Part shown: one piece after another, positions 637 to 49,086 of the stretch
Layout: every line of letters begins with the position of its first letter
How positions within the stretch are numbered: the stretch's first letter is position 1
Origin: Parcubacteria group bacterium
GTDB lineage: Bacteria; Patescibacteriota; Minisyncoccia; JACQLN01
NCBI GenBank assembly: GCA_016204035.1
Contig: JACQLN010000022.1
Coordinates: 1 to 49,631, forward strand
Direction: 5' to 3'
DNA: 49,631 bases
Notes under the pieces: model-generated
Told to the model about the DNA's origin: nothing
Seen by the model: only the letters and a program-made list of their open reading frames with translations
Database searches by the model: none
Program-made: the position numbers and the translations under genes

Positions 637-728
637 ATTTTTGTCTGGCGCATTATATCAAAGTGCGTCTTTGGTGTCAATACATTTTATTTGACGTTTA
701 GGTAAAAATTATATATGTTAACTTAGCT

Positions 729-2628: not shown

Positions 2629-3312
2629 ATGATTGAAATCAAAAATATCACCAAAACATACAAAACCGGGCCGATGGAATTTCAAGCTCTCGCCGGAGTG
2701 AGTTTTAAGATTGCCAGCGGCGAGTTTGTGGCCATTATGGGGCCGTCGGGTTCGGGCAAATCAACTTTAATGCATATTATCGGCGCTTTGGATAAACCCA
2801 CCACCGGCCAATATTTTTTGGGCGGCCAAAACATGTCGGCTTTGTCCGAAAACGAACTCGCCGATATTAGAAAAAATAAAATCGGGTTTGTGTTCCAACA
2901 ATTCAATCTTTTGCCCCGCACGTCTGTTTTAAGAAACGTAATGTTGCCTTTGGTTTATGCCGGCCTTAACAGCGCCGATCGGAAAGTTCAGTCGGAAATC
3001 GCCCTTAAGGCGGCCGGTTTGGATGAAAGCCATTTTAAGCATATGTCTAACCAGCTTTCCGGCGGCCAGATCCAGCGGGTGGCCATTGCCCGGGCTTTGG
3101 TTAACAACCCCGCTTTGATTTTGGCCGACGAACCCACCGGCAATTTAGATTCCAAAACCGGCGAGATTGTGCTTAACACCTTCAAAAAACTAAACCAAGA
3201 ACAAGGCCGAACCATCATTCTTATTACCCACGAACGCGACGTGGCCCAACACGCCCGCCGCGTAATTCATATTAAAGACGGCTTGATTGAAAGCGACACA
3301 GGCCAGTTATAA
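2629..3312 (+). CDS. ABC transporter ATP-binding protein (MacB/LolD type)
   Basis: Walker [10 protein letters not shown], signature LSGGQ and Walker [12 protein letters not shown]. Confidence 0.9.
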
Positions 3313-3315
3313 AGT

Positions 3316-3409
3316 GAGAGAAATATCGTTCCGAGCTGCCTCATGGAGATGACCGAATACTACAATTGAGAGGCCTCCATGCCGGCTGCGAGGAATGATA
3401 TTTCTTGAA
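3316..3409 (+). repeat. structured intergenic repeat, family B, copy 1
   Basis: Aligns with 44343..44441. The outer stem AGAAATATCGTTCC/GGAATGATATTTCT shows compensatory changes relative to copy 2. It overlaps the tracked ORF start at 3395. Confidence 0.55.
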
Positions 3410-6243: not shown

Positions 6244-6722
6244 GAACGTTTTTGGTTAATAAAAGGTGTTAGGAAAACGCCGCCGATCAAACCGCCGGCG
6301 GTGTTGCTGATAATATCCAACCAGGTGTCGTTGGCAGTTTTGGCGAAAGAAAAGTCAAAATAATTTTGCAAAGCGTATTCCAGCATCTCGTTAACCGTGC
6401 CCAGCGAAAGCGTTATTAAAAAACTGAACACGAAAAATTGGAACTTGCTTACATTCAACCCAGTGTCTTTAACCACCAAAAAACAAACCAGAAAACTCAA
6501 AAACCCGCCGCCAAAAATATGTAAAATCCTGTTGCTTAGTTCTAAATCGCGGATGCCGGAACTGCCGACAAAAATTAAAAAAGAAAGCGCAACCGTCAAG
6601 ACAACGGAATACAAAGATTTTCGGCCGGGGGCCGGCGAGACACCATTAAAAAAAGCCGGAAACAGAAAATAAAATAAAAAATAAGTTGCCACCCACCCTA
6701 AAAGCACTAAAAACAGGTACAT
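6240..6722 (-). CDS. hypothetical integral membrane protein
   Basis: 160 aa with four or more hydrophobic segments. No family recognised. Confidence 0.45.
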   Translation of the reverse strand: MYLFLVLLGWVATYFLFYFLFPAFFNGVSPAPGRKSLYSVVLTVALSFLIFVGSSGIRDLELSNRILHIFGGGFLSFLVCFLVVKDTGLNVSKFQFFVFSFLITLSLGTVNEMLEYALQNYFDFSFAKTANDTWLDIISNTAGGLIGGVFLTPFINQKRS

Positions 6723-6903
6723 ATTTAAGTTTGTTTTTAATTTTTTTATTATTGGATAAAATCCATCAGCTGCGGGACCACCGCCTTTTGCGGTGCAAGC
6801 TGGATTCGAACCCCCGCCTTCCGCGGGGTAAACAAGATACCCTCCTTTTCATCCCGCCACAGGCGGGACAAGCAGGGAGGTGTCCTACTTCACCCCGCCA
6901 AAT

Positions 6904-7236
6904 TTATTTATTCCCATCCAAAGCTGCGGGACCTGGATTCGAACCAAGATACCCTCCTTCAAAGGGAGGTGTCCTACCATTAGACGATCCCGCAGCTTTG
7001 GAAAGGAATTTTTTAAAAGCGTTACCGCTTTTCCAACTTTTGATTAATTTTTCTAATTTTCTTGCTTCAGCAATAGAATCAAAAACCTTGTTATATATAA
7101 TTTCCCAAGGTTTTCCGTGTTTCGTTGAATATACATCACCTTTATTGTGCCTTATTAATCTTTCGGAAGGTGATAATACAGTGATTCCGGTATAATATCT
7201 GTCTTTTTTATTTTTAAGTATGTAAAGATGCGGCAT
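6904..7236 (-). CDS. GIY-YIG (URI-domain, COG2827-like) nuclease family protein
   Basis: LYILKNKKDRYYTGIT...RLIRHNKG...ST...PWEIIY...EARKLEKLIKSW fits the GIY-YIG pattern. The last ~30 codons of the open frame read through the tRNA-Gln gene, so the true C-terminus is uncertain. Confidence 0.7.
   Translation of the reverse strand: MPHLYILKNKKDRYYTGITVLSPSERLIRHNKGDVYSTKHGKPWEIIYNKVFDSIAEARKLEKLIKSWKSGNAFKKFLSKAAGSSNGRTPPFEGGYLGSNPGPAALDGNK
6924..6994 (-). tRNA. tRNA-Gln (anticodon UUG)
   Basis: Hand-folded cloverleaf: acceptor TGCGGGA/TCCCGCA with U1-A72, D-stem GTCT/GGAC, anticodon stem CCTCC/GGAGG with loop CTTTGAA, T-arm CTTGG-TTCGAAT-CCAGG, discriminator G. CCA is not encoded. Confidence 0.85.
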
Positions 7237-7279
7237 TAAATTTGGCGGGGCAAGTTAGACGATCCCGCAATATTATAAA

Positions 7280-7618
7280 TTAAAATATCATGGTTTCAAT
7301 TTTTGACCTAACTTCATCTATAACCGACATATCAACCTTATCAATAAATTCGACTTTTCTGGCTTTCCAATCGGCGCTTTTTAAATGATCTGCCAAAATA
7401 ACGCCCGAGAACTTTCCTGCTTCTACCCAAACTTCAAATGGGTAATGCTTAACCTTTTTTGTAAGGGGGCACACTAAAGCTAGCCGGGATAATTTATTAT
7501 ATTTTTCTGGAGAAACAACCAAAGCCGGCCGTCGGCCACCCTGCTTATGACCTAAAACAGGATCAAAATCAATCCAAACCAAATCACCTCTATCGGGTAT
7601 GTAAGATTTAGTTACCAT
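7280..7618 (-). CDS. mazF: type II toxin, MazF/PemK family endoribonuclease
   Basis: YIPDRGDLVWIDFDP..GHKQGGRRPALVVSP...VCPLT is the MazF/PemK signature. The gene overlaps the upstream antitoxin gene by 7 nt. Confidence 0.85.
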   Translation of the reverse strand: MVTKSYIPDRGDLVWIDFDPVLGHKQGGRRPALVVSPEKYNKLSRLALVCPLTKKVKHYPFEVWVEAGKFSGVILADHLKSADWKARKVEFIDKVDMSVIDEVRSKIETMIF

Positions 7619-7860
7619 ATCTCTCTGCCTACGGGCCTGCCCCAGTTGGTTTCCTTATGTCTATTTTTTGGAGTGATTTTAGAGAGTAATTCTTCCAAAG
7701 TAAACTTTCTTTTGAGTTTTGATTTTGGTTTAATAATTATATTTTTGGCTCTAGGAATAATATCAACTTCCACACCCTCGGCAAGGTTTAGTTTTTTTGT
7801 TACTTCTTTAGGGAAGCGGACAGCCAAACTATTACCCCATTTTTGAACTTTGGTAGACAT
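7612..7860 (-). CDS. mazE: type II antitoxin, AbrB/MazE/SpoVT family
   Basis: VQKWGNSLAVRFPKEV is a swapped-hairpin AbrB/MazE motif. Lies directly upstream of mazF. Confidence 0.8.
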   Translation of the reverse strand: MSTKVQKWGNSLAVRFPKEVTKKLNLAEGVEVDIIPRAKNIIIKPKSKLKRKFTLEELLSKITPKNRHKETNWGRPVGREIW

Positions 7861-8344: not shown

Positions 8345-9325
8345 ATGAAAAAGATAAAAAACAATAAGCAAATAGTGATTTATCAGGCAAAATCCGGGAA
8401 TATTGAGCTTCGGGGCGATTTTGATAAAGAAACAATTTGGGCATCACAAGCTGAAATTGCCAAAATTTTTAGTGTCACACCACAAAATATTACACTTCAT
8501 TTACGTAATATCTTTAAAGATAACGAACTTGATATAAAATCAACTTGTAAGGAATCCTTACAAGTTCAAAAAGAAGGTGGCAGGGAGATCAAGCGTAAAA
8601 TAAAAGTATATAATCTTGATATTATTATCGCTATCGGTTATCGGATTAACTCTGTTGTTGGTACCAAGTTTCGCCAGTGGGCAACTAAAACTTTAAGGGA
8701 ACATCTTCTTAAAGGTTATACCATAAACCGCAAGCGTATTAGTCAAAATTACGATGAGTTTATGAAAACTGTTAATGATGTTCAAATGCTTCTACCCGAA
8801 CATATAACCCTTGACCCTAAAGCGGTTCTTGAACTCATTAAAGAATTTGCCAGCACGTGGGTGTCACTTGATGCTTACGATAAAGAATCCCTTGCAGTTG
8901 TTGGTACAACTAAAAAAGCAATCAAACTTACCGGAGCAGAACTGGCCAACACCATACGGACTCTTCGTTTGGAATTAATCAAAAAAGGCGAGACCACGGA
9001 AATATTTGCTCAAGAGAAAAAAGAAGGGAGCGTTGAAGGAATAGTAGGTAATATAATGCAGTCATTTGACGGTAAACCACTCTACATAAGTATTGAAGAA
9101 AAAGCTGCACATCTATTGTATTTTATGGTTAAAAATCATCCTTTCACGGACGGCAATAAACGTTCCGGCGCCTTTGCTTTTATTTGGTTTATTCGCAAGT
9201 TTGGAGTTAAAGGCACGCGGAACATAAACCCATCCAGTTTAACAGCACTCACGCTTCTTATTGCCGAAAGCGATCCAAAGAAAAAAGAACAGGTTGTCGC
9301 GCTAATAACCCAATTACTAAAATAA
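8345..9325 (+). CDS. RhuM-family protein with C-terminal Fic/Doc domain
   Basis: The N-terminal 130 aa are RhuM-like (IAIGYRINS..GTKFRQWAT..L). The C-terminal motif HPFTDGNKRSG is the Doc-type variant of the Fic motif. Confidence 0.75.
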   Translation: MKKIKNNKQIVIYQAKSGNIELRGDFDKETIWASQAEIAKIFSVTPQNITLHLRNIFKDNELDIKSTCKESLQVQKEGGREIKRKIKVYNLDIIIAIGYRINSVVGTKFRQWATKTLREHLLKGYTINRKRISQNYDEFMKTVNDVQMLLPEHITLDPKAVLELIKEFASTWVSLDAYDKESLAVVGTTKKAIKLTGAELANTIRTLRLELIKKGETTEIFAQEKKEGSVEGIVGNIMQSFDGKPLYISIEEKAAHLLYFMVKNHPFTDGNKRSGAFAFIWFIRKFGVKGTRNINPSSLTALTLLIAESDPKKKEQVVALITQLLK

Positions 9326-14839: not shown

Positions 14840-15643
14840 CTAGTTGCCGAATCCGCCGGCGGCCGTTTGGCTGAAGCTGGCGCCTCCCTGGCTGGCCCGC
14901 ACCGCGGACTGGCTGAACACGTTAAACGCCCTCCGCAACTCCGAGGGCGTATTGCCCGGGGTGAGGATCCACTCGTCCTCAATCCCCATCTCGCTGAACA
15001 CCCGGCGGAAATCCGTACTTCCGCCGTCGTCGATACCCATGCCCGCGATGATGTGGCCCTCGGTCTTCAGCATGTCCCGAACGATAGCCCGAACGCTCGA
15101 GGGGTTTTGCTGACGCGAGTGTTCATCGGCGCCATCCGTGATGATCAGGGTGACCGCCCGGCAAGGCACGCCGTTGTCCTCGAAAGACTGAACCTTCGCG
15201 AGCACAGTGCCAAGCAGAACAACTGACTGGTCGTAGAGCGGCGTGCCCTTACTGGGATCGTAGTTGTGGCTGTCCATCCGCACCACCTGGTCAAGGGGCG
15301 CGAAAGGATACAACACGAACCCGTTGAGATACCGGCAGTGTACAAGGATACCGTCCTTCTGCTTGGAACCGCCGAGAGAGTCCAGGACAAGGTTGTGACC
15401 GTCCCGGACATGCTGGGCGTTGCCGGCAAACCGGATGGAACCGGAATCGTCCGGCATCATGGTAACGAGCGTGACCTCGCTCGCCTTGACATCATCGACA
15501 TCGACGCCGATGCCCATCTGAATCTGCTCGCCAATGTCGGCGATGTTGATGGCACCTGCGCCAGCCGGAGACAATGTTCCGTCCTCCTTGGCGCTGTTGA
15601 GCAATGTAGCCACGCTTTGACCGGAACTGCTTGGCTTACCCAC
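14840..15643 (-). CDS. von Willebrand factor A (vWA) domain protein, TerY-like
   Basis: MIDAS motif DDSGS (DxSxS) and a downstream ITDGADE. GTG start preceded by GAAGGAGG. GC-rich. Confidence 0.8.
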   Translation of the reverse strand: MGKPSSSGQSVATLLNSAKEDGTLSPAGAGAINIADIGEQIQMGIGVDVDDVKASEVTLVTMMPDDSGSIRFAGNAQHVRDGHNLVLDSLGGSKQKDGILVHCRYLNGFVLYPFAPLDQVVRMDSHNYDPSKGTPLYDQSVVLLGTVLAKVQSFEDNGVPCRAVTLIITDGADEHSRQQNPSSVRAIVRDMLKTEGHIIAGMGIDDGGSTDFRRVFSEMGIEDEWILTPGNTPSELRRAFNVFSQSAVRASQGGASFSQTAAGGFGN

Positions 15644-15686
15644 AGCTGACCTCCTTCTGGTTTAGGAGTTGGGTTGAGAATCACGG

Positions 15687-16772
15687 CTAGGCGGCAACAT
15701 TCATGCCCGGCCACGACTCGATTGGCTCGGTAGAATTCACGACGTTCATACCGGCGGCGGCGTAACGCTGGAGCGCCTCCTCCGCCTGATCGGTGAAATC
15801 CACGAAGAAACCGCCCTTCGGATTCGGAACCGCCACCGCCGAAGTGCAGTCCCTGAGAACATAGACTTTCTTGGCCAGACCCGGATCCTGGGTGAGGATC
15901 TCGGCCAGGAAATGATCAATGGACGACTTCACGCAGTGGCTCGCGGCCTGACCCGCGATAACCAAAGCATCAGCGTCCATGAGACTCTGGATGAATCTGA
16001 CATTCTTGGATCCCAGAACCCCAGAACCGTCAAAACGAAGCGTCACCTCCGGGCTGAAGACGGAATAGTTTTCCGTGAGCGGATTACCGCCCTTCACTTC
16101 GGCCTCGGACTGCATCTGGCGAACATACGAATGAAACATCCTGGCTTCCTGAATGACGCCGACCAGTGTGTGGCCGTCGGAACCGAGCATGCAATGTTCG
16201 GGCCAGATGTAGAGCTGGTAGCGCCCGCCTTCCGCGAGTTTCTCGCAGTAGAACCGCACCTGCTTCTGGAGCCAGGTGTAATTGCCATTGCAGAGGAACC
16301 CGGCAACCGCCGGGTTCGGCGCCGCCTTGCCGACGGGCTTGCCCAGGCGAAGAATCGTGAGATCCGCCGAGATCATATCGTGGGGCTGGAGGGGATTGCC
16401 ATCCGCATCCACCCAGAACGACGGGAAAAAGATCTGGAAAGGAAAGTGCGTATCCAGGGTCGGGGTGATGTGCGTCAGTACGTGGATGTTCTCGTAGATG
16501 AACCTCGCGATTCGGCGACTGTCGTCAACCGCGCCGGTTCCGCTTCGTCCGCCGACGTAGAGCGTGCCTTCGGGAAAACAGAAGTCGCGCTGCCCGTCGA
16601 TGATCAGCAGGTGAACTTTGAACCGATCGCCCGCGGCGGCTTTGATGTTAAGCTGTCGCCGGTAATCCTGCGCCGAGGTAAACAGGTCGCGAAGATTGGG
16701 CGAGTAACTCCACCTGACGGCGTTGGCGGGATCGTAGAAACTGGGCAACTGCGGAGTGCGAGCGCGAACCAT
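15687..16772 (-). CDS. isochorismatase-family cysteine hydrolase, nicotinamidase (PncA)-like
   Basis: IIDGQRDFC (catalytic Asp region), LDTH (possible metal site) and GQAASHCV (nucleophile Cys). 361 aa. SD AAAGGAG. Confidence 0.7.
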   Translation of the reverse strand: MVRARTPQLPSFYDPANAVRWSYSPNLRDLFTSAQDYRRQLNIKAAAGDRFKVHLLIIDGQRDFCFPEGTLYVGGRSGTGAVDDSRRIARFIYENIHVLTHITPTLDTHFPFQIFFPSFWVDADGNPLQPHDMISADLTILRLGKPVGKAAPNPAVAGFLCNGNYTWLQKQVRFYCEKLAEGGRYQLYIWPEHCMLGSDGHTLVGVIQEARMFHSYVRQMQSEAEVKGGNPLTENYSVFSPEVTLRFDGSGVLGSKNVRFIQSLMDADALVIAGQAASHCVKSSIDHFLAEILTQDPGLAKKVYVLRDCTSAVAVPNPKGGFFVDFTDQAEEALQRYAAAGMNVVNSTEPIESWPGMNVAA

Positions 16773-16812
16773 TTCTGGCTCCTTTCGGTGATGAGATGTG
16801 ATCGTTCTTTTA

Positions 16813-18702
16813 TTACCTGATGGTCAGACGCCATATTTCATGCGTCCCAACCACCATAAGGCCGATTTTATCTACAAACAGGTGCCGGCCGGTATGCACA
16901 AACCGAGCGGCATCAGGAAATTCTTTTTCCACGGCTAGCGTGTTGCCAAAAGATTTCACCCTGACGATACCGTCGTCGGTCGCGACCAAAAGAAAATCGT
17001 TGATGGCGCACTTTCCACGAATTTTTCCAAGCCAAGATCCGTCGTCAGCTTCGGTTTCGGCTTGGGCTTCAACAGTGCCGTCGTAACGGATAAGGAAACA
17101 GGAGTTTATCGTTTGGCCGCCCATGCGGCTGGAGATAATAAACCAAATCATGTCTTTGCCAAAAAGACAGGTGGAATCAATGAGCTGCCCTTTGAACGGC
17201 CTTAAAGTCAAATTGCTGTTGATGCCTTTTCTTTCGGTGTTAAAGATAAAACACTGGCTTAGACCGCCGGCCCGATAAAATCCAAAGCCGACTCGCGGCC
17301 CAACCCAAAACAAAGTTTGTTGGCGGAGCACATCGCCGACAATTTCATGAAAACCAACACCGAGTTTGCTGGTGCGTTTGATCTGGCCGTTGCCTACCCA
17401 AAAAACATTCCGTTCATTCGCATCAACCGCCGGCAACGACCCAAGAGCGTCCACGGCAATTGTTTGGGGCGTCTGTTCGCCAGCAGTGAACACAGAAGCG
17501 GTATTGCCGTTGGCGATCACCGTATCTGCAGAACGAATACGGAAACGGGCATAGGGATCCAGCGCACTAGCCGCAACAACTGAACCGTCTTCACGACGAT
17601 ATTCTTTGTCGTGATGGTAAAGCCATTTCAACGATCCTCCTTGGGAAACAGCGAAGATGACCTGGCCTTCGGTCCGGAAGATTCTTTCTCCAGAAACGGT
17701 TCCTGTGGACACGGCTGTCACCGCCTGTGGGATTATCACTTTGCATTTGGGACAGACGTTGCGAGCGTGAATAGTGCCGCAGGTGTTGCAGGTTGTCCAA
17801 CGAAGATCGTCAAGAAGTTGTCGGGGAATCGGCATCCTATAGTCTTTCTCAAAAACATCAAAGAAGTATTGCAAGAGGCCATCAGATAAAACACTGAAAT
17901 GGCGCGATGGTCTTGGGTAGCGCACTTCCGGATGAAACACGGTAATACGGTGAAGCGGCCGCACATTGTGAGCCACTTTTTTGGACTGATTTTTGGGCTT
18001 GTAAACCCCGCCGTAAGGTCCGCCCGAAATACAAAGCAGGGTCTGCATCAACATAACCGCAAACGCGTACCAATCCGACATTTCATTGTGGGGCTTGGAA
18101 AGCAGTATCCTATCCTGGTGCAATGCGCATAAGAGCGGATCCACGAATCTCTCCGTGAACACTCGACACAGAAATTGGCCGAACTGGCCGCTGTCCGCGT
18201 CAATAACATACACTTCCTTACCTTTCACAAGAATGTTTAAGTCGTTGGCATCGCCAAAGACATATCCTTTTTTGTGAGAACTGTGAAATATAGAGTAAAG
18301 ATTTCTGCAAACATCCGCCACAACATCGTCGGGAATTCCGCTTTCGCGGAAGTTAACTTCGCTGTACCGCAGGAGCACTTCCGCTCCCTTTACAAATACC
18401 ATGGTATAACCGACCACAGTACCATTGCGATCATACGCAAGTTCTTTTGGAACAATAACTTCTTCGGGGAGCCCGCTGGGAAAAGCCGGAAGTTTTCTTT
18501 GGTGTTCGGCAATCCGCTCCCGAGCCCCGTTTTGTTCGTGGGGCAAACCTATGTAGTCGGGATGGTCGGGCGGTTTGAAAATCTTTAACGCCGTTCCGCC
18601 GTCAATATCATAGACGTCGGCTTCGCCTCCTTTGCCAACTGACTTGTCGGGATCAAGCCGAAATCTTTTTTTGGCTGGACCGATAAAGACCTCGCTGATC
18701 AT
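16813..18702 (-). CDS. Ser/Thr protein kinase-like protein with Zn-ribbon and beta-rich C-terminal domain
   Basis: G-loop GKGGEADVY, Lys in ALKIFK, catalytic GDANDLNILV and VIDADSG. A CNTCG...CPKC Zn-ribbon follows, then ~300 aa of repeated beta-strand-like sequence. The start overlaps the PP2C stop (ATGA). Confidence 0.75.
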   Translation of the reverse strand: MISEVFIGPAKKRFRLDPDKSVGKGGEADVYDIDGGTALKIFKPPDHPDYIGLPHEQNGARERIAEHQRKLPAFPSGLPEEVIVPKELAYDRNGTVVGYTMVFVKGAEVLLRYSEVNFRESGIPDDVVADVCRNLYSIFHSSHKKGYVFGDANDLNILVKGKEVYVIDADSGQFGQFLCRVFTERFVDPLLCALHQDRILLSKPHNEMSDWYAFAVMLMQTLLCISGGPYGGVYKPKNQSKKVAHNVRPLHRITVFHPEVRYPRPSRHFSVLSDGLLQYFFDVFEKDYRMPIPRQLLDDLRWTTCNTCGTIHARNVCPKCKVIIPQAVTAVSTGTVSGERIFRTEGQVIFAVSQGGSLKWLYHHDKEYRREDGSVVAASALDPYARFRIRSADTVIANGNTASVFTAGEQTPQTIAVDALGSLPAVDANERNVFWVGNGQIKRTSKLGVGFHEIVGDVLRQQTLFWVGPRVGFGFYRAGGLSQCFIFNTERKGINSNLTLRPFKGQLIDSTCLFGKDMIWFIISSRMGGQTINSCFLIRYDGTVEAQAETEADDGSWLGKIRGKCAINDFLLVATDDGIVRVKSFGNTLAVEKEFPDAARFVHTGRHLFVDKIGLMVVGTHEIWRLTIR

Positions 18703-47706: not shown

Positions 47707-49086
47707 ATGAAAATAAAAACCCGCATCGCGCCCAGCCCCACCGGTTTATTCCACATCGGCAACGCCCGCACGGCTTTGTTCAGTTATTTGTTCGCCAAAA
47801 AAAATCACGGCGAGTTCTTGCTGCGCATAGAAGACACCGACATTGAACGCTCTAAGAAAGAATACGAAGACGACATTATAAACGGCTTAAGATGGCTGGG
47901 CATAATATGGGACGGCGAAATAATCCGCCAAAGAGACAGAGCGCCTAAGCACCGCGAATACTTGGAAAAACTCTTGGCCGAAAGCAAGGCCTTTTACTGC
48001 CGCCACACCCCCGCTGAGCTGGCGCAAGAACAGAAAAACCAAGAATTGGAAAAAATTCCCTTCCGGCACGACTGCCAGCACAAATACGATCCGGAGATCA
48101 GCGACGGAGTGATCCGCTTAAAAAATCCCGGCGGTAAAATTGTTTTTAAGGATTTAATAAGGGGCGAGCTTATTTTTGAAAGCGAATTATTGGGCGACCT
48201 GGTTTTAGCCAAAGACTTGAACACACCGCTTTATAATTTCGCGGTGGTGATTGACGACGCTGAAATGGAAATAACCCACGTTATTAGGGGAGATGATCAT
48301 CTTTCTAATACGCCCAAACAAATACTGACTCAAGAAGCTTTAGGTTTCAACCGGCCGGAATACGCGCATCTGCCGTTGATACTGGCCGCCGACCGATCCA
48401 AACTATCCAAAAGGCACGGCGGCACTTCCGTGACGGAATATAAAAATATGGGTTATCTGCCCCAGGCCCTGCTTAATTTTATGGCGCTTCTGGGCTGGCA
48501 CCCGGCCACCGATCAAGAGATATTCAGTCTGGAAGAATTGATACAAGAATTTGATTTGAACCGGGTGCAAAAAGCCGGCGCTGTTTTTGACAAAGAAAAA
48601 CTTGATTCCATAAACCGCCACTATATTAAACAGCTGGTGCCGGCCGAACTGGCTAAACACATCGCGCCCCATTTTATAGCATACAATCTTAACCCGGAAC
48701 AATTGATCAAAACGGCTCATTTATTTCAAGATCGTCTTAATAGATTTTCTGAAATTAAGGATCTGGCCGGTTTTTTATTTGACGCGCCTAAATACCAGCC
48801 CGAGTTGCTTAATTGGAAAAACTCTTCGGCCGGGGAAACCAAAAGCAATTTGGAAACCGCGCTGATGGTTTTGGAAAAACTCCCCATAGACTCGTTCAAT
48901 ATAGACACTATCACCACCGAACTGATGCCGGTAGCTAACAAAATCGGGCGGGGAGAGGTGTTGTGGCCCTTGCGGGTGGCCTTGTCGGGTTTGGATAAAT
49001 CCCCCAGTCCTTTTGAAATAATGGAAGTTTTAGGGAAAGCGGAATCAGTGGCTAGAATCAAAAAAGCCATAGATAAGATCAAATGA
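47707..49086 (+). CDS. gltX: glutamate--tRNA ligase
   Basis: HIGH motif (HIGNARTA) and KMSKS motif (KLSKR). Confidence 0.9.
   Translation: MKIKTRIAPSPTGLFHIGNARTALFSYLFAKKNHGEFLLRIEDTDIERSKKEYEDDIINGLRWLGIIWDGEIIRQRDRAPKHREYLEKLLAESKAFYCRHTPAELAQEQKNQELEKIPFRHDCQHKYDPEISDGVIRLKNPGGKIVFKDLIRGELIFESELLGDLVLAKDLNTPLYNFAVVIDDAEMEITHVIRGDDHLSNTPKQILTQEALGFNRPEYAHLPLILAADRSKLSKRHGGTSVTEYKNMGYLPQALLNFMALLGWHPATDQEIFSLEELIQEFDLNRVQKAGAVFDKEKLDSINRHYIKQLVPAELAKHIAPHFIAYNLNPEQLIKTAHLFQDRLNRFSEIKDLAGFLFDAPKYQPELLNWKNSSAGETKSNLETALMVLEKLPIDSFNIDTITTELMPVANKIGRGEVLWPLRVALSGLDKSPSPFEIMEVLGKAESVARIKKAIDKIK

Follow-up and report, generated by a model that had tools for sequence, protein, structure and literature searches.

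How can a bacterial tRNA gene come to be cut apart by a nuclease gene together with a second, complete copy of the same tRNA, and what became of the gene so interrupted? The question is raised by a locus on contig JACQLN010000022.1 of a Parcubacteria group bacterium (GCA_016204035.1), of which the whole stretch of 49,631 nt, hereafter the window, was analysed. On its minus strand, 7269..6770 is a tRNA-Gln(UUG) split into five pieces, each an exact copy of part of an intact tRNA-Gln lying among them. Four insertions separate these outer pieces, in the D-loop, the anticodon loop and both strands of the T-stem (ins1 to ins4). The first, of about 365 nt, carries a GIY-YIG open reading frame (ORF) and the intact inner tRNA-Gln, and is enclosed by a long-range helix, P1. 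This architecture is conserved and widespread, being found in more than 100 uncultured Patescibacteria, and is not a one-off. We lean, without strong conviction, towards the explanation that a selfish homing-type cassette entered a tRNA-Gln gene, carrying a tRNA-Gln of its own as a replacement.

The locus had been singled out in an earlier note made from the DNA letters alone, and every sequence quoted there was found at its minus-strand position. ARAGORN reports a single tRNA in the window, tRNA-Gln(UUG) at 6994..6923. The Rfam tRNA model scored 61.6 bits at 6994..6924 in an E-value scan of 6400..7700 on both strands, a scan that gave nothing else above threshold and no group I intron. A repeat search recovered the outer pieces at 7269..7255 (15 nt, 100%), 6888..6874 (15 nt, 100%), 6847..6830 (94% over 18 nt, the tRNA-derived 15 nt at 6847..6833 being identical), 6812..6800 (13 nt, 100%) and 6779..6768 (12 nt, 100%); the outer copy has zero point substitutions. 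The outer 5′ piece spans the 5′ strands of the acceptor and D-stems and the start of the D-loop. Its resemblance to the inner tRNA was correctly seen in the note, although the identity extends over 15 nt (7269..7255 / 6994..6980) and not 14. This 15-mer is present twice where 0.00 occurrences are expected, which disposes of chance similarity.

Likewise, the long complementary pair that the note described as 13 bp is a perfect inverted repeat of 14 bp (7250..7237 / 6906..6893), present once against 0.00 expected. With a G.U pair, a bulged G and CTT/AAG added, it reaches 18 pairs, and as P1 it does enclose both the GIY-YIG ORF (7236..6904) and the inner tRNA (6994..6924); the placing of all four insertions was borne out by the repeat search as well. 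Two features had been overlooked. Firstly, there is no stop codon between the nuclease domain and the inner tRNA, and the ORF is translated through the tRNA. Secondly, the inner tRNA is preceded by 14 nt complementary to the 14 nt that begin with its discriminator, and the two strands form a helix, P2, that stacks directly on the inner acceptor stem. RNAfold gives the 508-nt transcript −189 kcal/mol (z = −9.4 against shuffles), in a structure that contains P1 and P2, the acceptor stems of both tRNAs, the outer D stem and the three small hairpins, with the last outer piece (6770..6778) paired to 7269..7263. The locus holds a mobile unit bounded by the inverted ends CTTG-CCCCGCC.../...GGCGGGG-TGAA of P1, with a nuclease and a tRNA-Gln as cargo, lodged in the D-loop of a resident tRNA-Gln gene that survives only as an outer 5′ piece and an outer 3′ half.

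The same plan was met repeatedly. A protein search with the 110-aa ORF returned 114 clusters, most of which (more than 100) cover the tRNA-encoded tail (AAGSSNGRT..FE..YLGSNP.PAAL), whose variable part corresponds to covarying Gln anticodon stems; many clusters continue with ..KFGGVK, the translated 3′ arm of P1. Scanning one genome per GTDB species gave 80 homologous loci. At 26 of them, all in Patescibacteria, the ORF runs into a tRNA-Gln (UUG or CUG), and most of the 26 show the nested plan, with an outer 5′ piece ending in ...GTCTAA about 270-290 nt upstream and an outer 3′ half restarting at GTAGGAC after the 3′ arm of P1. A metagenome scan with the junction 17-mer GTCTAACTTGCCCCGCC yielded at least 120 stretches, about 110 of the matches listed being genuine. 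Protein and DNA-motif searches together place at least about 130 related Patescibacteria loci under this plan, 65 of which form a non-redundant set with both arms of P1. A nuclease ORF lodged in a conserved gene, a copy of the displaced gene and remnants of the native one, as in a mobile ORF with a replacement gene, are present in the window and in about 130 related loci.

Both helices vary in sequence and are kept as helices. In an alignment of 50 sequences restricted to the junction and tRNA parts, 96.6% of the cells are paired against 82.2% in shuffles (none of 500 shuffles reached the observed value), and slid controls were all at most 53% paired. Double-sided changes affect 9 of the 18 pairs of P1 and 13 of the 14 pairs of P2. 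When arms are compared within and across loci, the distal part of P1 pairs at 6.1 of 7 positions against 5.2, and P2 at 13.2 of 14 against 10.1. The variation of P1 is seen in its distal 7 bp, which covary with compensatory changes such as CAGATTTA/TAAATCTG, CAAAGATA/TATCTTTG and CAAAATCA/TGATTTTG; its base (CTT/AAG, the G.U pair, the bulged G, then CCCCGCC/GGCGGGG) is essentially invariant. G.U pairs outnumber A.C mismatches in P2 by 49 to 12, indicating that the helix matters on the sense strand, either as RNA or as sense-strand single-stranded DNA. P1 and P2 are conserved by selection as helices. The first of the two explanations offered in the earlier note, a homing-type cassette in a tRNA-Gln gene that has since decayed, implied a singular accident, which the recurring plan and the two covarying helices refute.

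Table. Features of the nested tRNA-Gln locus, listed in the 5′ to 3′ direction of the minus strand
Feature	Coordinates	Strand	Remarks
Promoter-like site TTGAAA-16 nt-TATAAT	7272..7299	-	11/12 matches; consensus match only; within mazF 3′ end
Outer tRNA 5′ piece, positions 1-15	7255..7269	-	Identical to inner tRNA 6994..6980
P1 5′ arm CTTG-CCCCGCC-AAATTTA (CTTG-CCCCGCCAAATTTA)	7237..7254	-	Pairs with 6906..6888; adjoins ATG start codon
GIY-YIG ORF, 110 codons	6904..7236	-	PF01541, 2.7e-12; stop TAA 6906..6904 in P1 3′ arm
P2 5′ strand TTCCTTTCCAAAGC	6995..7008	-	Also codes nuclease C-terminal helix
Inner intact tRNA-Gln(UUG), discriminator G6924 included	6924..6994	-	ARAGORN; Rfam 61.6 bits
P2 3′ strand GCTTTGGATGGGAA	6911..6924	-	Begins at discriminator; lengthens inner acceptor stem by 14 bp
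P1 3′ arm TAAATTT-GGCGGGG-T(G)AA-G (TAAATTTGGCGGGG-TGAA-G)	6888..6906	-	Invariant G.U pair, bulged G
Outer piece, positions 18-32 (D-loop end, D-stem 3′ strand, anticodon-stem 5′ strand)	6874..6888	-	100% identical to inner tRNA
Module ins2, anticodon loop: G-CTTG-TCCCGCC-TGT-GGCGGGA-TGAA	6848..6873	-	Ends same as P1
Outer piece, positions 36-50	6833..6847	-	Copy of inner tRNA
Module ins3, 21 nt, T-stem 5′ strand: TTTA + CCCCGC-GGAAG-GCGGGG	6812..6832	-	
Outer piece, positions 51-62 (T-loop and part of T-stem)	6800..6811	-	
Module ins4, 21 nt, T-stem 3′ strand: CTTG + CACCGC-AAAAG-GCGGTG	6779..6799	-	
Outer piece, positions 63-71 (T-stem end, acceptor 3′ strand, discriminator)	6770..6778	-	

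What became of the interrupted gene can be read from the 65 loci. The outer 3′ half has its native length in 16 of them. It is longer by +21 to +28 nt in 12 loci, by +40 to +53 nt in 8 and by +60 to +65 nt in 2, corresponding to one, two and three of the small hairpin modules (the window, at +65, has three), and in about 20 of the 65 it is absent or unrecognisable. Outer and inner tRNA disagree at as many as 19 of 68 positions among the 16 clean loci, and identity of the two 5′ 15-mers is limited to 19 of the 65 loci. An outer tRNA that is coherent yet unlike its inner partner is what would be expected if a cassette with a foreign tRNA had landed in a resident gene. This divergence, a possible sign of transfer seen in many relatives, is absent in the window where the copies are identical, and it would equally arise from long co-residence of two functional copies.

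Moreover, all loci examined whose flanks are long enough have an intact tRNA-Gln within the interrupted copy or just upstream of it, and in no locus does the inner tRNA carry a hairpin module. Derivatives that have lost parts were found too: ORF-deleted forms retain the arms and the inner tRNA (L097, L148, L167 and others), some loci lack the outer 3′ half (L002, L012, L016), and tandem arrays of 5′-truncated, hairpin-bearing copies occur behind an intact tRNA. A coherent but differing outer tRNA, a constant intact companion, loss derivatives and an apparently active nuclease together point to a selfish cassette. The cassette part of the first explanation in the note is hence the one best supported by the comparative data. 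Its second half, a decayed outer gene, is too simple, as what is seen is pieces free of point substitutions that are interrupted at recurrent positions by specific 21-nt tagged palindromes.

The PF01541 match of the nuclease (47.3 bits against a cut-off of 22.6) covers residues 2-70, and no NCBIfam model matches the protein. The nuclease domain occupies about codons 1-84 (7236..6985), and the last ~27 codons are the translated inner tRNA and its trailer. Residues 1-84 are modelled by AlphaFold2 with a predicted local distance difference test (pLDDT) score above 90, residues 84-110 with one below 50, the tRNA-encoded tail being predicted to be disordered. Y5, Y15, G17, R26, H30, E62 and N72 are invariant or at least 90% conserved among 24 sequences. 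In a sequence search of the PDB only UPF0213 matches were meaningful; hits to designer pentatricopeptide (PPR) repeat proteins were discarded as repeat-summing artefacts. With structure taken into account, the best PDB matches are 1zg2 and 1ywl of UPF0213, followed by the structure-selective nuclease Slx1. Profile, catalytic residues and fold agree in placing the protein in the GIY-YIG superfamily, in the stand-alone UPF0213/YhbQ/Slx1-like branch, and from its conserved residues and modelled fold it looks active. Small stand-alone GIY-YIG proteins of the UPF0213/YhbQ type are very common, and we know of no established role for them. Most of the ~70 full-length relatives read through the tRNA in the same way (ORFs of 110-123 aa) and a few stop at 85-88 aa. 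If RNase P and RNase Z release the tRNA, the remaining nuclease mRNA would be left without a stop codon.

From these elements a course of events for the selfish cassette can be proposed. The whole unit would be transcribed from upstream of the outer 5′ piece, and P1 and P2 may give the insert the shape of a rod in which the ends of the inner tRNA are open to normal processing, so that the host would keep a working tRNA-Gln. P1 covers the region just upstream of the nuclease start codon and could limit its translation, as in other homing-endonuclease genes. The nuclease, in turn, would promote copying of the cassette into unoccupied tRNA-Gln genes. Once disrupted, the outer copy would be dispensable and could serve as a sink for 21-nt tagged palindromes, cargo-less relatives of the element that would insert at a few favoured places in a tRNA: the D-loop, the T arm and the surroundings of 34/35 in the anticodon loop. 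The three extra hairpins of the window would be such palindromes. If so, the nested tRNA-in-tRNA design illustrates a way for a selfish element to enter an RNA gene that is essential and single-copy while its host survives. Since P1 and P2 flank a tRNA precursor and the nuclease ORF, the processing of the one and the control of expression of the other are testable in Patescibacteria.

Nonetheless, a number of observations weigh against a homing cassette in a dead gene. The outer halves of the 16 clean loci are perfect tRNAs, with 0 mismatches in 160 anticodon- and T-stem pairs, and the outer pieces of the window are identical to the inner tRNA in spite of three insertions; such unmutated pieces and stems fit a neutrally decaying relic poorly. 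The window and its closest relative, L201, share an odd anticodon-loop junction but differ by compensatory pairs in the interrupted stem. The element termini and P1 are strongly conserved, which a classical homing cassette does not need. The protein, of ~81 aa, is a catalytic domain alone and, in its model, lacks the separate DNA-binding domain expected of a homing enzyme and present in those of the I-TevI and Seg type. The D-loop of the inner tRNA is intact, and if this is the target, the nuclease should cut its own inner tRNA. Comparisons of flanking genes revealed no pair of occupied and empty states at one syntenic site: L201 is occupied and not syntenic, its neighbouring gene being unrelated, and the membrane protein downstream in the window has no database record for such a comparison. 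An all-against-all comparison of ~100 metagenome loci showed no presence/absence polymorphism of a 21-nt module, and the nuclease cassette was not found on viral contigs. The undecayed outer stems, the compensation between the window and L201, the conserved termini, the minimal nuclease and the intact inner D-loop are the reasons why two rival explanations were kept. Phage carriage is not one of them and was rejected; the viral-contig scan gave only tRNA-Gln genes matching the tRNA-encoded tail, without a GIY-YIG domain.

The perfect outer stems lead directly to the first rival, that the outer tRNA is a working gene, its inserts being a new bacterial intervening sequence that is removed or tolerated as RNA, so that the locus yields two tRNA-Gln. 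Host RNases acting on P1 and P2, or a so far unrecognized pair of endonuclease and ligase, are candidate mechanisms of removal. Acceptor, anticodon and T stems are all perfect at the clean loci and 15 of the 16 keep the anticodon of the inner tRNA despite the sequence differences between the copies; the invariant base of P1 (CUUG/UGAAG, with the G.U pair and bulged G) sits exactly at the outer D-loop junction. The bias of P2 towards G.U pairs speaks for folding of the sense strand, the compensatory pairs between the window and L201 lie in the interrupted anticodon stem itself, and the fold predicted for the RNA is a nested cloverleaf. Many of the 21-nt modules are inserted cleanly, and taking them out restores a 7-nt anticodon loop (L010, L011, L013, L021, L152, L171, L178, L182). 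A precedent of sorts exists in rRNA genes of the Candidate Phyla Radiation (CPR), where insertions coding for GIY-YIG proteins belong neither to the group I nor to the group II introns (PMC11270868).

We regard this first rival as quite unlikely all the same. No interrupted copy examined stands alone, each being accompanied by an intact partner, and the loci with an absent or scrambled outer 3′ half, together with the arrays of 5′-truncated copies, weigh against it as well. As the earlier note had remarked, a clean 7-nt loop is not recovered in the window when the anticodon-loop hairpin is taken out, and we found that no single removal rule restores one. Taking out tag and hairpin also costs the D-loop its G18G19. 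Modules are absent from every inner tRNA, contrary to what harmless introns would lead one to expect; Rfam gave no intron match; and the promoter-like site, a consensus match whose −10 element ends 3 nt upstream of the outer 5′ end, would start transcription at about 7265, inside the outer acceptor strand, a weak point against. In L014 (Kerfeldbacteria) the outer tRNA-Gln (~665..720) is structurally perfect with the anticodon UUA and, if ever matured, would read the UAA stop codon. The second explanation of the note, a multiply interrupted tRNA with unusual processing, is disfavoured by the lack of a 7-nt loop rule, the lost G18G19 and the missing 3′ halves. Were outer copies nevertheless to mature, they would represent a new kind of bacterial tRNA intervening sequence.

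Two kinds of known intron were compared with the inserts. Group I and group II introns were rejected as no ribozyme core appeared in the Rfam scan of 6400..7700 on both strands. An archaeal bulge-helix-bulge tRNA intron was set aside by inspection, as the helix is uninterrupted at the junctions, its irregularities being a single bulged G and a G.U pair in place of the 3-nt bulge, 4-bp helix and 3-nt bulge of that intron type; the inserts lie in the D-loop, at 34/35 and in the T stem, against the usual bulge-helix-bulge site at 37/38.

The small hairpins have rules of their own. Most of these mini-modules are 21 nt long: 17 nt form a GC-rich palindrome and the other 4 nt a tag, which either precedes the hairpin (CTTG or TTTA) or follows it (CAAG, TAAA or TGAA), and both orientations are seen. 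They are clean inserts without target duplication, recurring in the anticodon loop at or next to 34/35 and after position 49 in the T-stem 5′ strand, beside (T/A)G|G. Their stems vary between genomes with complementarity kept. The position of ins3 is also occupied in L009, L011 and L019, and the junction of ins2 is found again in L201. Modules flanked by both CTTG and TGAA share the ends of P1 and replace a TG instead of inserting cleanly, which is why the anticodon loop of the window cannot be restored by one simple rule. Hairpins may be empty (L083, L096, L118) or carry a tRNA as sole cargo (L143, TCCCGCACAAGGC-tRNA-GCCTTGTGCGGGA), and some D-loops hold an empty hairpin only, with the ORF and tRNA inserted further along.

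Perhaps, then, the palindromes are the mobile agents. According to the second rival, tagged palindromes resembling repetitive extragenic palindromic (REP) sequences are moved as folded single-stranded DNA by the Slx1/UPF0213-type GIY-YIG nuclease, with tRNA loops as targets; the ORF and tRNA would be cargo in the loop of one palindrome, and the nuclease would play a role like that of a REP-associated tyrosine transposase (RAYT) and not one of classical homing. The module layout, with its tag, both orientations and no target duplication, is that reported for GTAG-tagged REPs (PMC3733652). P1 has the same ends as the mini-modules, hairpins occur empty, with a tRNA only or with ORF and tRNA, insertion sites share the (T/A)G|G context, and the nearest solved folds of the nuclease include Slx1, a cutter of branched and hairpin DNA. 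In Patescibacteria as in Bacteroidota, the palindromes are concentrated no more than ~400 nt away from the GIY-YIG gene.

Yet they are not dispersed as REPs are, for no other CCCGC...GCGGG hairpins occur in the 49.6-kb window, and the small number that lie outside tRNA copies resemble ordinary terminators. The missing insertion polymorphism and the junction rule of doubly flanked modules, which is not one of simple insertion, also count against such transposition. To our knowledge, no GIY-YIG enzyme performs transposition. We hold the second rival to be unlikely. A generic genome-wide hairpin repeat was rejected, the distant hits being further tRNA copies or ordinary terminators. Miniature inverted-repeat transposable elements (MITEs) were rejected as well; inverted ends are present, but the 21-nt inserts are clean and lack a target-site duplication.

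An explanation of another sort would take the outer fragments for attachment-site duplications of an integrase island, or for an assembly artefact of a repeated tRNA. tRNA genes are common integration sites that are left with partial direct repeats, and in one metagenome pair, L001 and L178, a chimeric junction falls precisely on the inner tRNA: up to that tRNA, upstream flank and ORF included, the two contigs share 98.6% identity, beyond it the divergence is complete, and in L178 the strands of P2 have lost their pairing. They are the only near-identical elements with different targets that we found and, reflecting either recombination within the tRNA or an assembly chimera at the repeat, are not usable as evidence. 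No integrase is present, the D-loop insert measures no more than about 365 nt, 5′ and 3′ fragments flank the intact copy in nested order with covarying arms, and the same plan is found in more than 100 independent assemblies. We give this explanation almost no credence and rejected both of its forms.

Among described systems, the selfish cassette comes closest to the mobile ORFs (mORFs) of fungal mitochondria, which in Allomyces macrogynus atp6 and in Glomus atp6, atp9, cox2 and nad3 carry a replacement gene segment (PMC3630166). An mORF joins an endonuclease ORF (GIY-YIG in atp9) to a copy of the displaced gene part, leaving the native part as a downstream relic; the inserted copy often diverges from the native one, a mark of transfer, and the ORF may run in phase with the host gene (PMC3630166). 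Alike are the insertion of a nuclease ORF into a conserved gene with a replacement copy and the native relic left behind. Here, however, the host is a bacterial tRNA and the cargo is a complete gene instead of a 3′ segment; the insert is nested, with relics on both sides, covarying P1 arms and a cargo tRNA with a P2 helix of its own, and the relic collects specific 21-nt palindromes.

A GIY-YIG nuclease gene among tRNA genes is also known from phage T4, where segB, on a 687-bp fragment, encodes a free-standing homing endonuclease within the tRNA gene cluster; SegB has a conserved motif of tRNA genes as its recognition sequence, cleaves within such genes and spreads along with those nearby (PMC2330249). 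Unlike the 81-aa domain described here, SegB is phage-encoded and several times longer, and its gene lies between tRNA genes and not inside one, without a nested duplicate, bounding helix or palindromes. The rRNA insertions of the CPR share with our locus the bacterial group, the nuclease superfamily, the location at loops or stem bases of a structured RNA and the absence of ribozyme features; they are sparse and non-site-specific, and the report concerns rRNA and mentions neither tRNA nor palindromes (PMC11270868).

The REP/RAYT system is reported to have short GC-rich palindromes with a conserved 4-nt tag, in either orientation, around the gene of a presumed mover (PMC3733652). Tagged palindromes in both orientations were found here as well; the linked gene, by contrast, encodes a GIY-YIG nuclease and not an HUH/Y1 transposase, the tags are CTTG, TTTA and TGAA, not GTAG and CGTC, and the modules are confined to tRNA-gene copies and not dispersed genome-wide, while REPs are scattered in hundreds. 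Bacterial group I introns occupy anticodon loops of tRNAs, sometimes with homing-endonuclease ORFs (PMC3984707). In contrast to these, our inserts match no Rfam intron, the main one lies in the D-loop, and they consist of 21-nt hairpins or of a hairpin with cargo. The intron of tRNA-Leu(UAA) sits at 34/35, close to the hot spot of the mini-modules. In full-text literature searches, neither GIY-YIG genes lying within bacterial tRNA genes nor these palindromes were found described, and as far as the searches reach the arrangement is undescribed; what comes nearest is the statement on the CPR rRNA insertions (PMC11270868). It may be of a known kind, the mobile endonuclease ORF with replacement gene, and its nested tRNA, bounding helices, tRNA-specific tagged palindromes and cross-phylum tRNA linkage may be features of a new class.

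That linkage goes beyond tRNA-Gln. Of the 80 genome loci, 54 have a tRNA on the same strand starting at most about 120 nt from the ORF end and 12 more have one ending within ~150 nt upstream, which points to a general tRNA-gene-linked lifestyle of the nuclease family. Distant homologues adjoin tRNA-Tyr, Glu, Ser, His and Ala (in Patescibacteria, Gln, Tyr, Glu, Ser and His). In the tRNA-Tyr versions (L031, L032, L034, L038), CCACCGCC...GGCGGGG hairpins divide the outer copy at the boundary of anticodon nucleotides 34 and 35; L034 has a module of hairpin and CAAG in the D-loop, and in L031 and L032 the 3′ pieces are repeated in tandem. In Ferruginibacter and other Chitinophagaceae (Bacteroidota), the ORF is followed by a tRNA-Pro(GGG) copy whose D-arm is replaced by GCCCCGCC-NNN-GGCGGGGC, with the same palindrome core as in Patescibacteria (CCCCGCC-NNN-GGCGGGG) and a normal tRNA-Pro upstream (L042, L043, L047, L049, L051, L064, ~3240..3316); L042 repeats the unit of ORF and altered tRNA in tandem. 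Three contigs of Candidatus Hadarchaeum metagenome-assembled genomes, which are archaeal (L062, L067, L069), carry a GIY-YIG homologue with 44-47% identity over ~65 residues and are exceptions to the linkage, with no tRNA detected nearby.

A broader proposal, which we make tentatively and with more doubt than confidence, is that hairpin-bounded mobile modules, either empty (21 nt), with a tRNA or with a nuclease and a tRNA, form a class not recognised before, which has tRNA-gene loops as its specific sites, depends on a minimal GIY-YIG nuclease of the Slx1/UPF0213 type and spreads across phyla, with tRNA-Gln, Tyr, Glu, Ser and His as hosts in Patescibacteria and tRNA-Pro in Bacteroidota; in its boldest form the module-bearing tRNAs would still be matured, by a so far unrecognized excision pathway of bacteria. 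The large orphan UPF0213/YhbQ-like family might then have a role, which would be its first biological one if the proposal is true. In practice, the design yields tRNA pseudogenes overlooked by standard tRNA finders and can cause assembly chimeras and mis-annotated ORFs with tRNA-encoded tails.

Finally, the neighbourhood in the window deserves mention. Directly upstream of the tRNA locus lie genes for a MazF/PemK toxin (7280..7618, minus strand) and a MazE antitoxin (7612..7860, minus strand), the mazF stop codon being 10 nt from the outer tRNA 5′ end; L201 has no toxin-antitoxin module at the equivalent upstream position. An ORF with RhuM and Fic/DOC domains (8345..9325, plus strand) adjoins the toxin-antitoxin pair, and with it the neighbourhood looks like a small accessory or mobile region. 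Further away, 15001..17000 has a GC content of 0.57-0.59 against ~0.44 elsewhere in the window, with long ORFs overlapping on opposite strands (15687..16772, minus; 15912..16820, plus), and may be foreign or compositionally atypical DNA. The same window also encodes a class I aminoacyl-tRNA synthetase of the Glu/Gln type (PF00749 and an anticodon-binding domain) at 47707..49086 on the plus strand.

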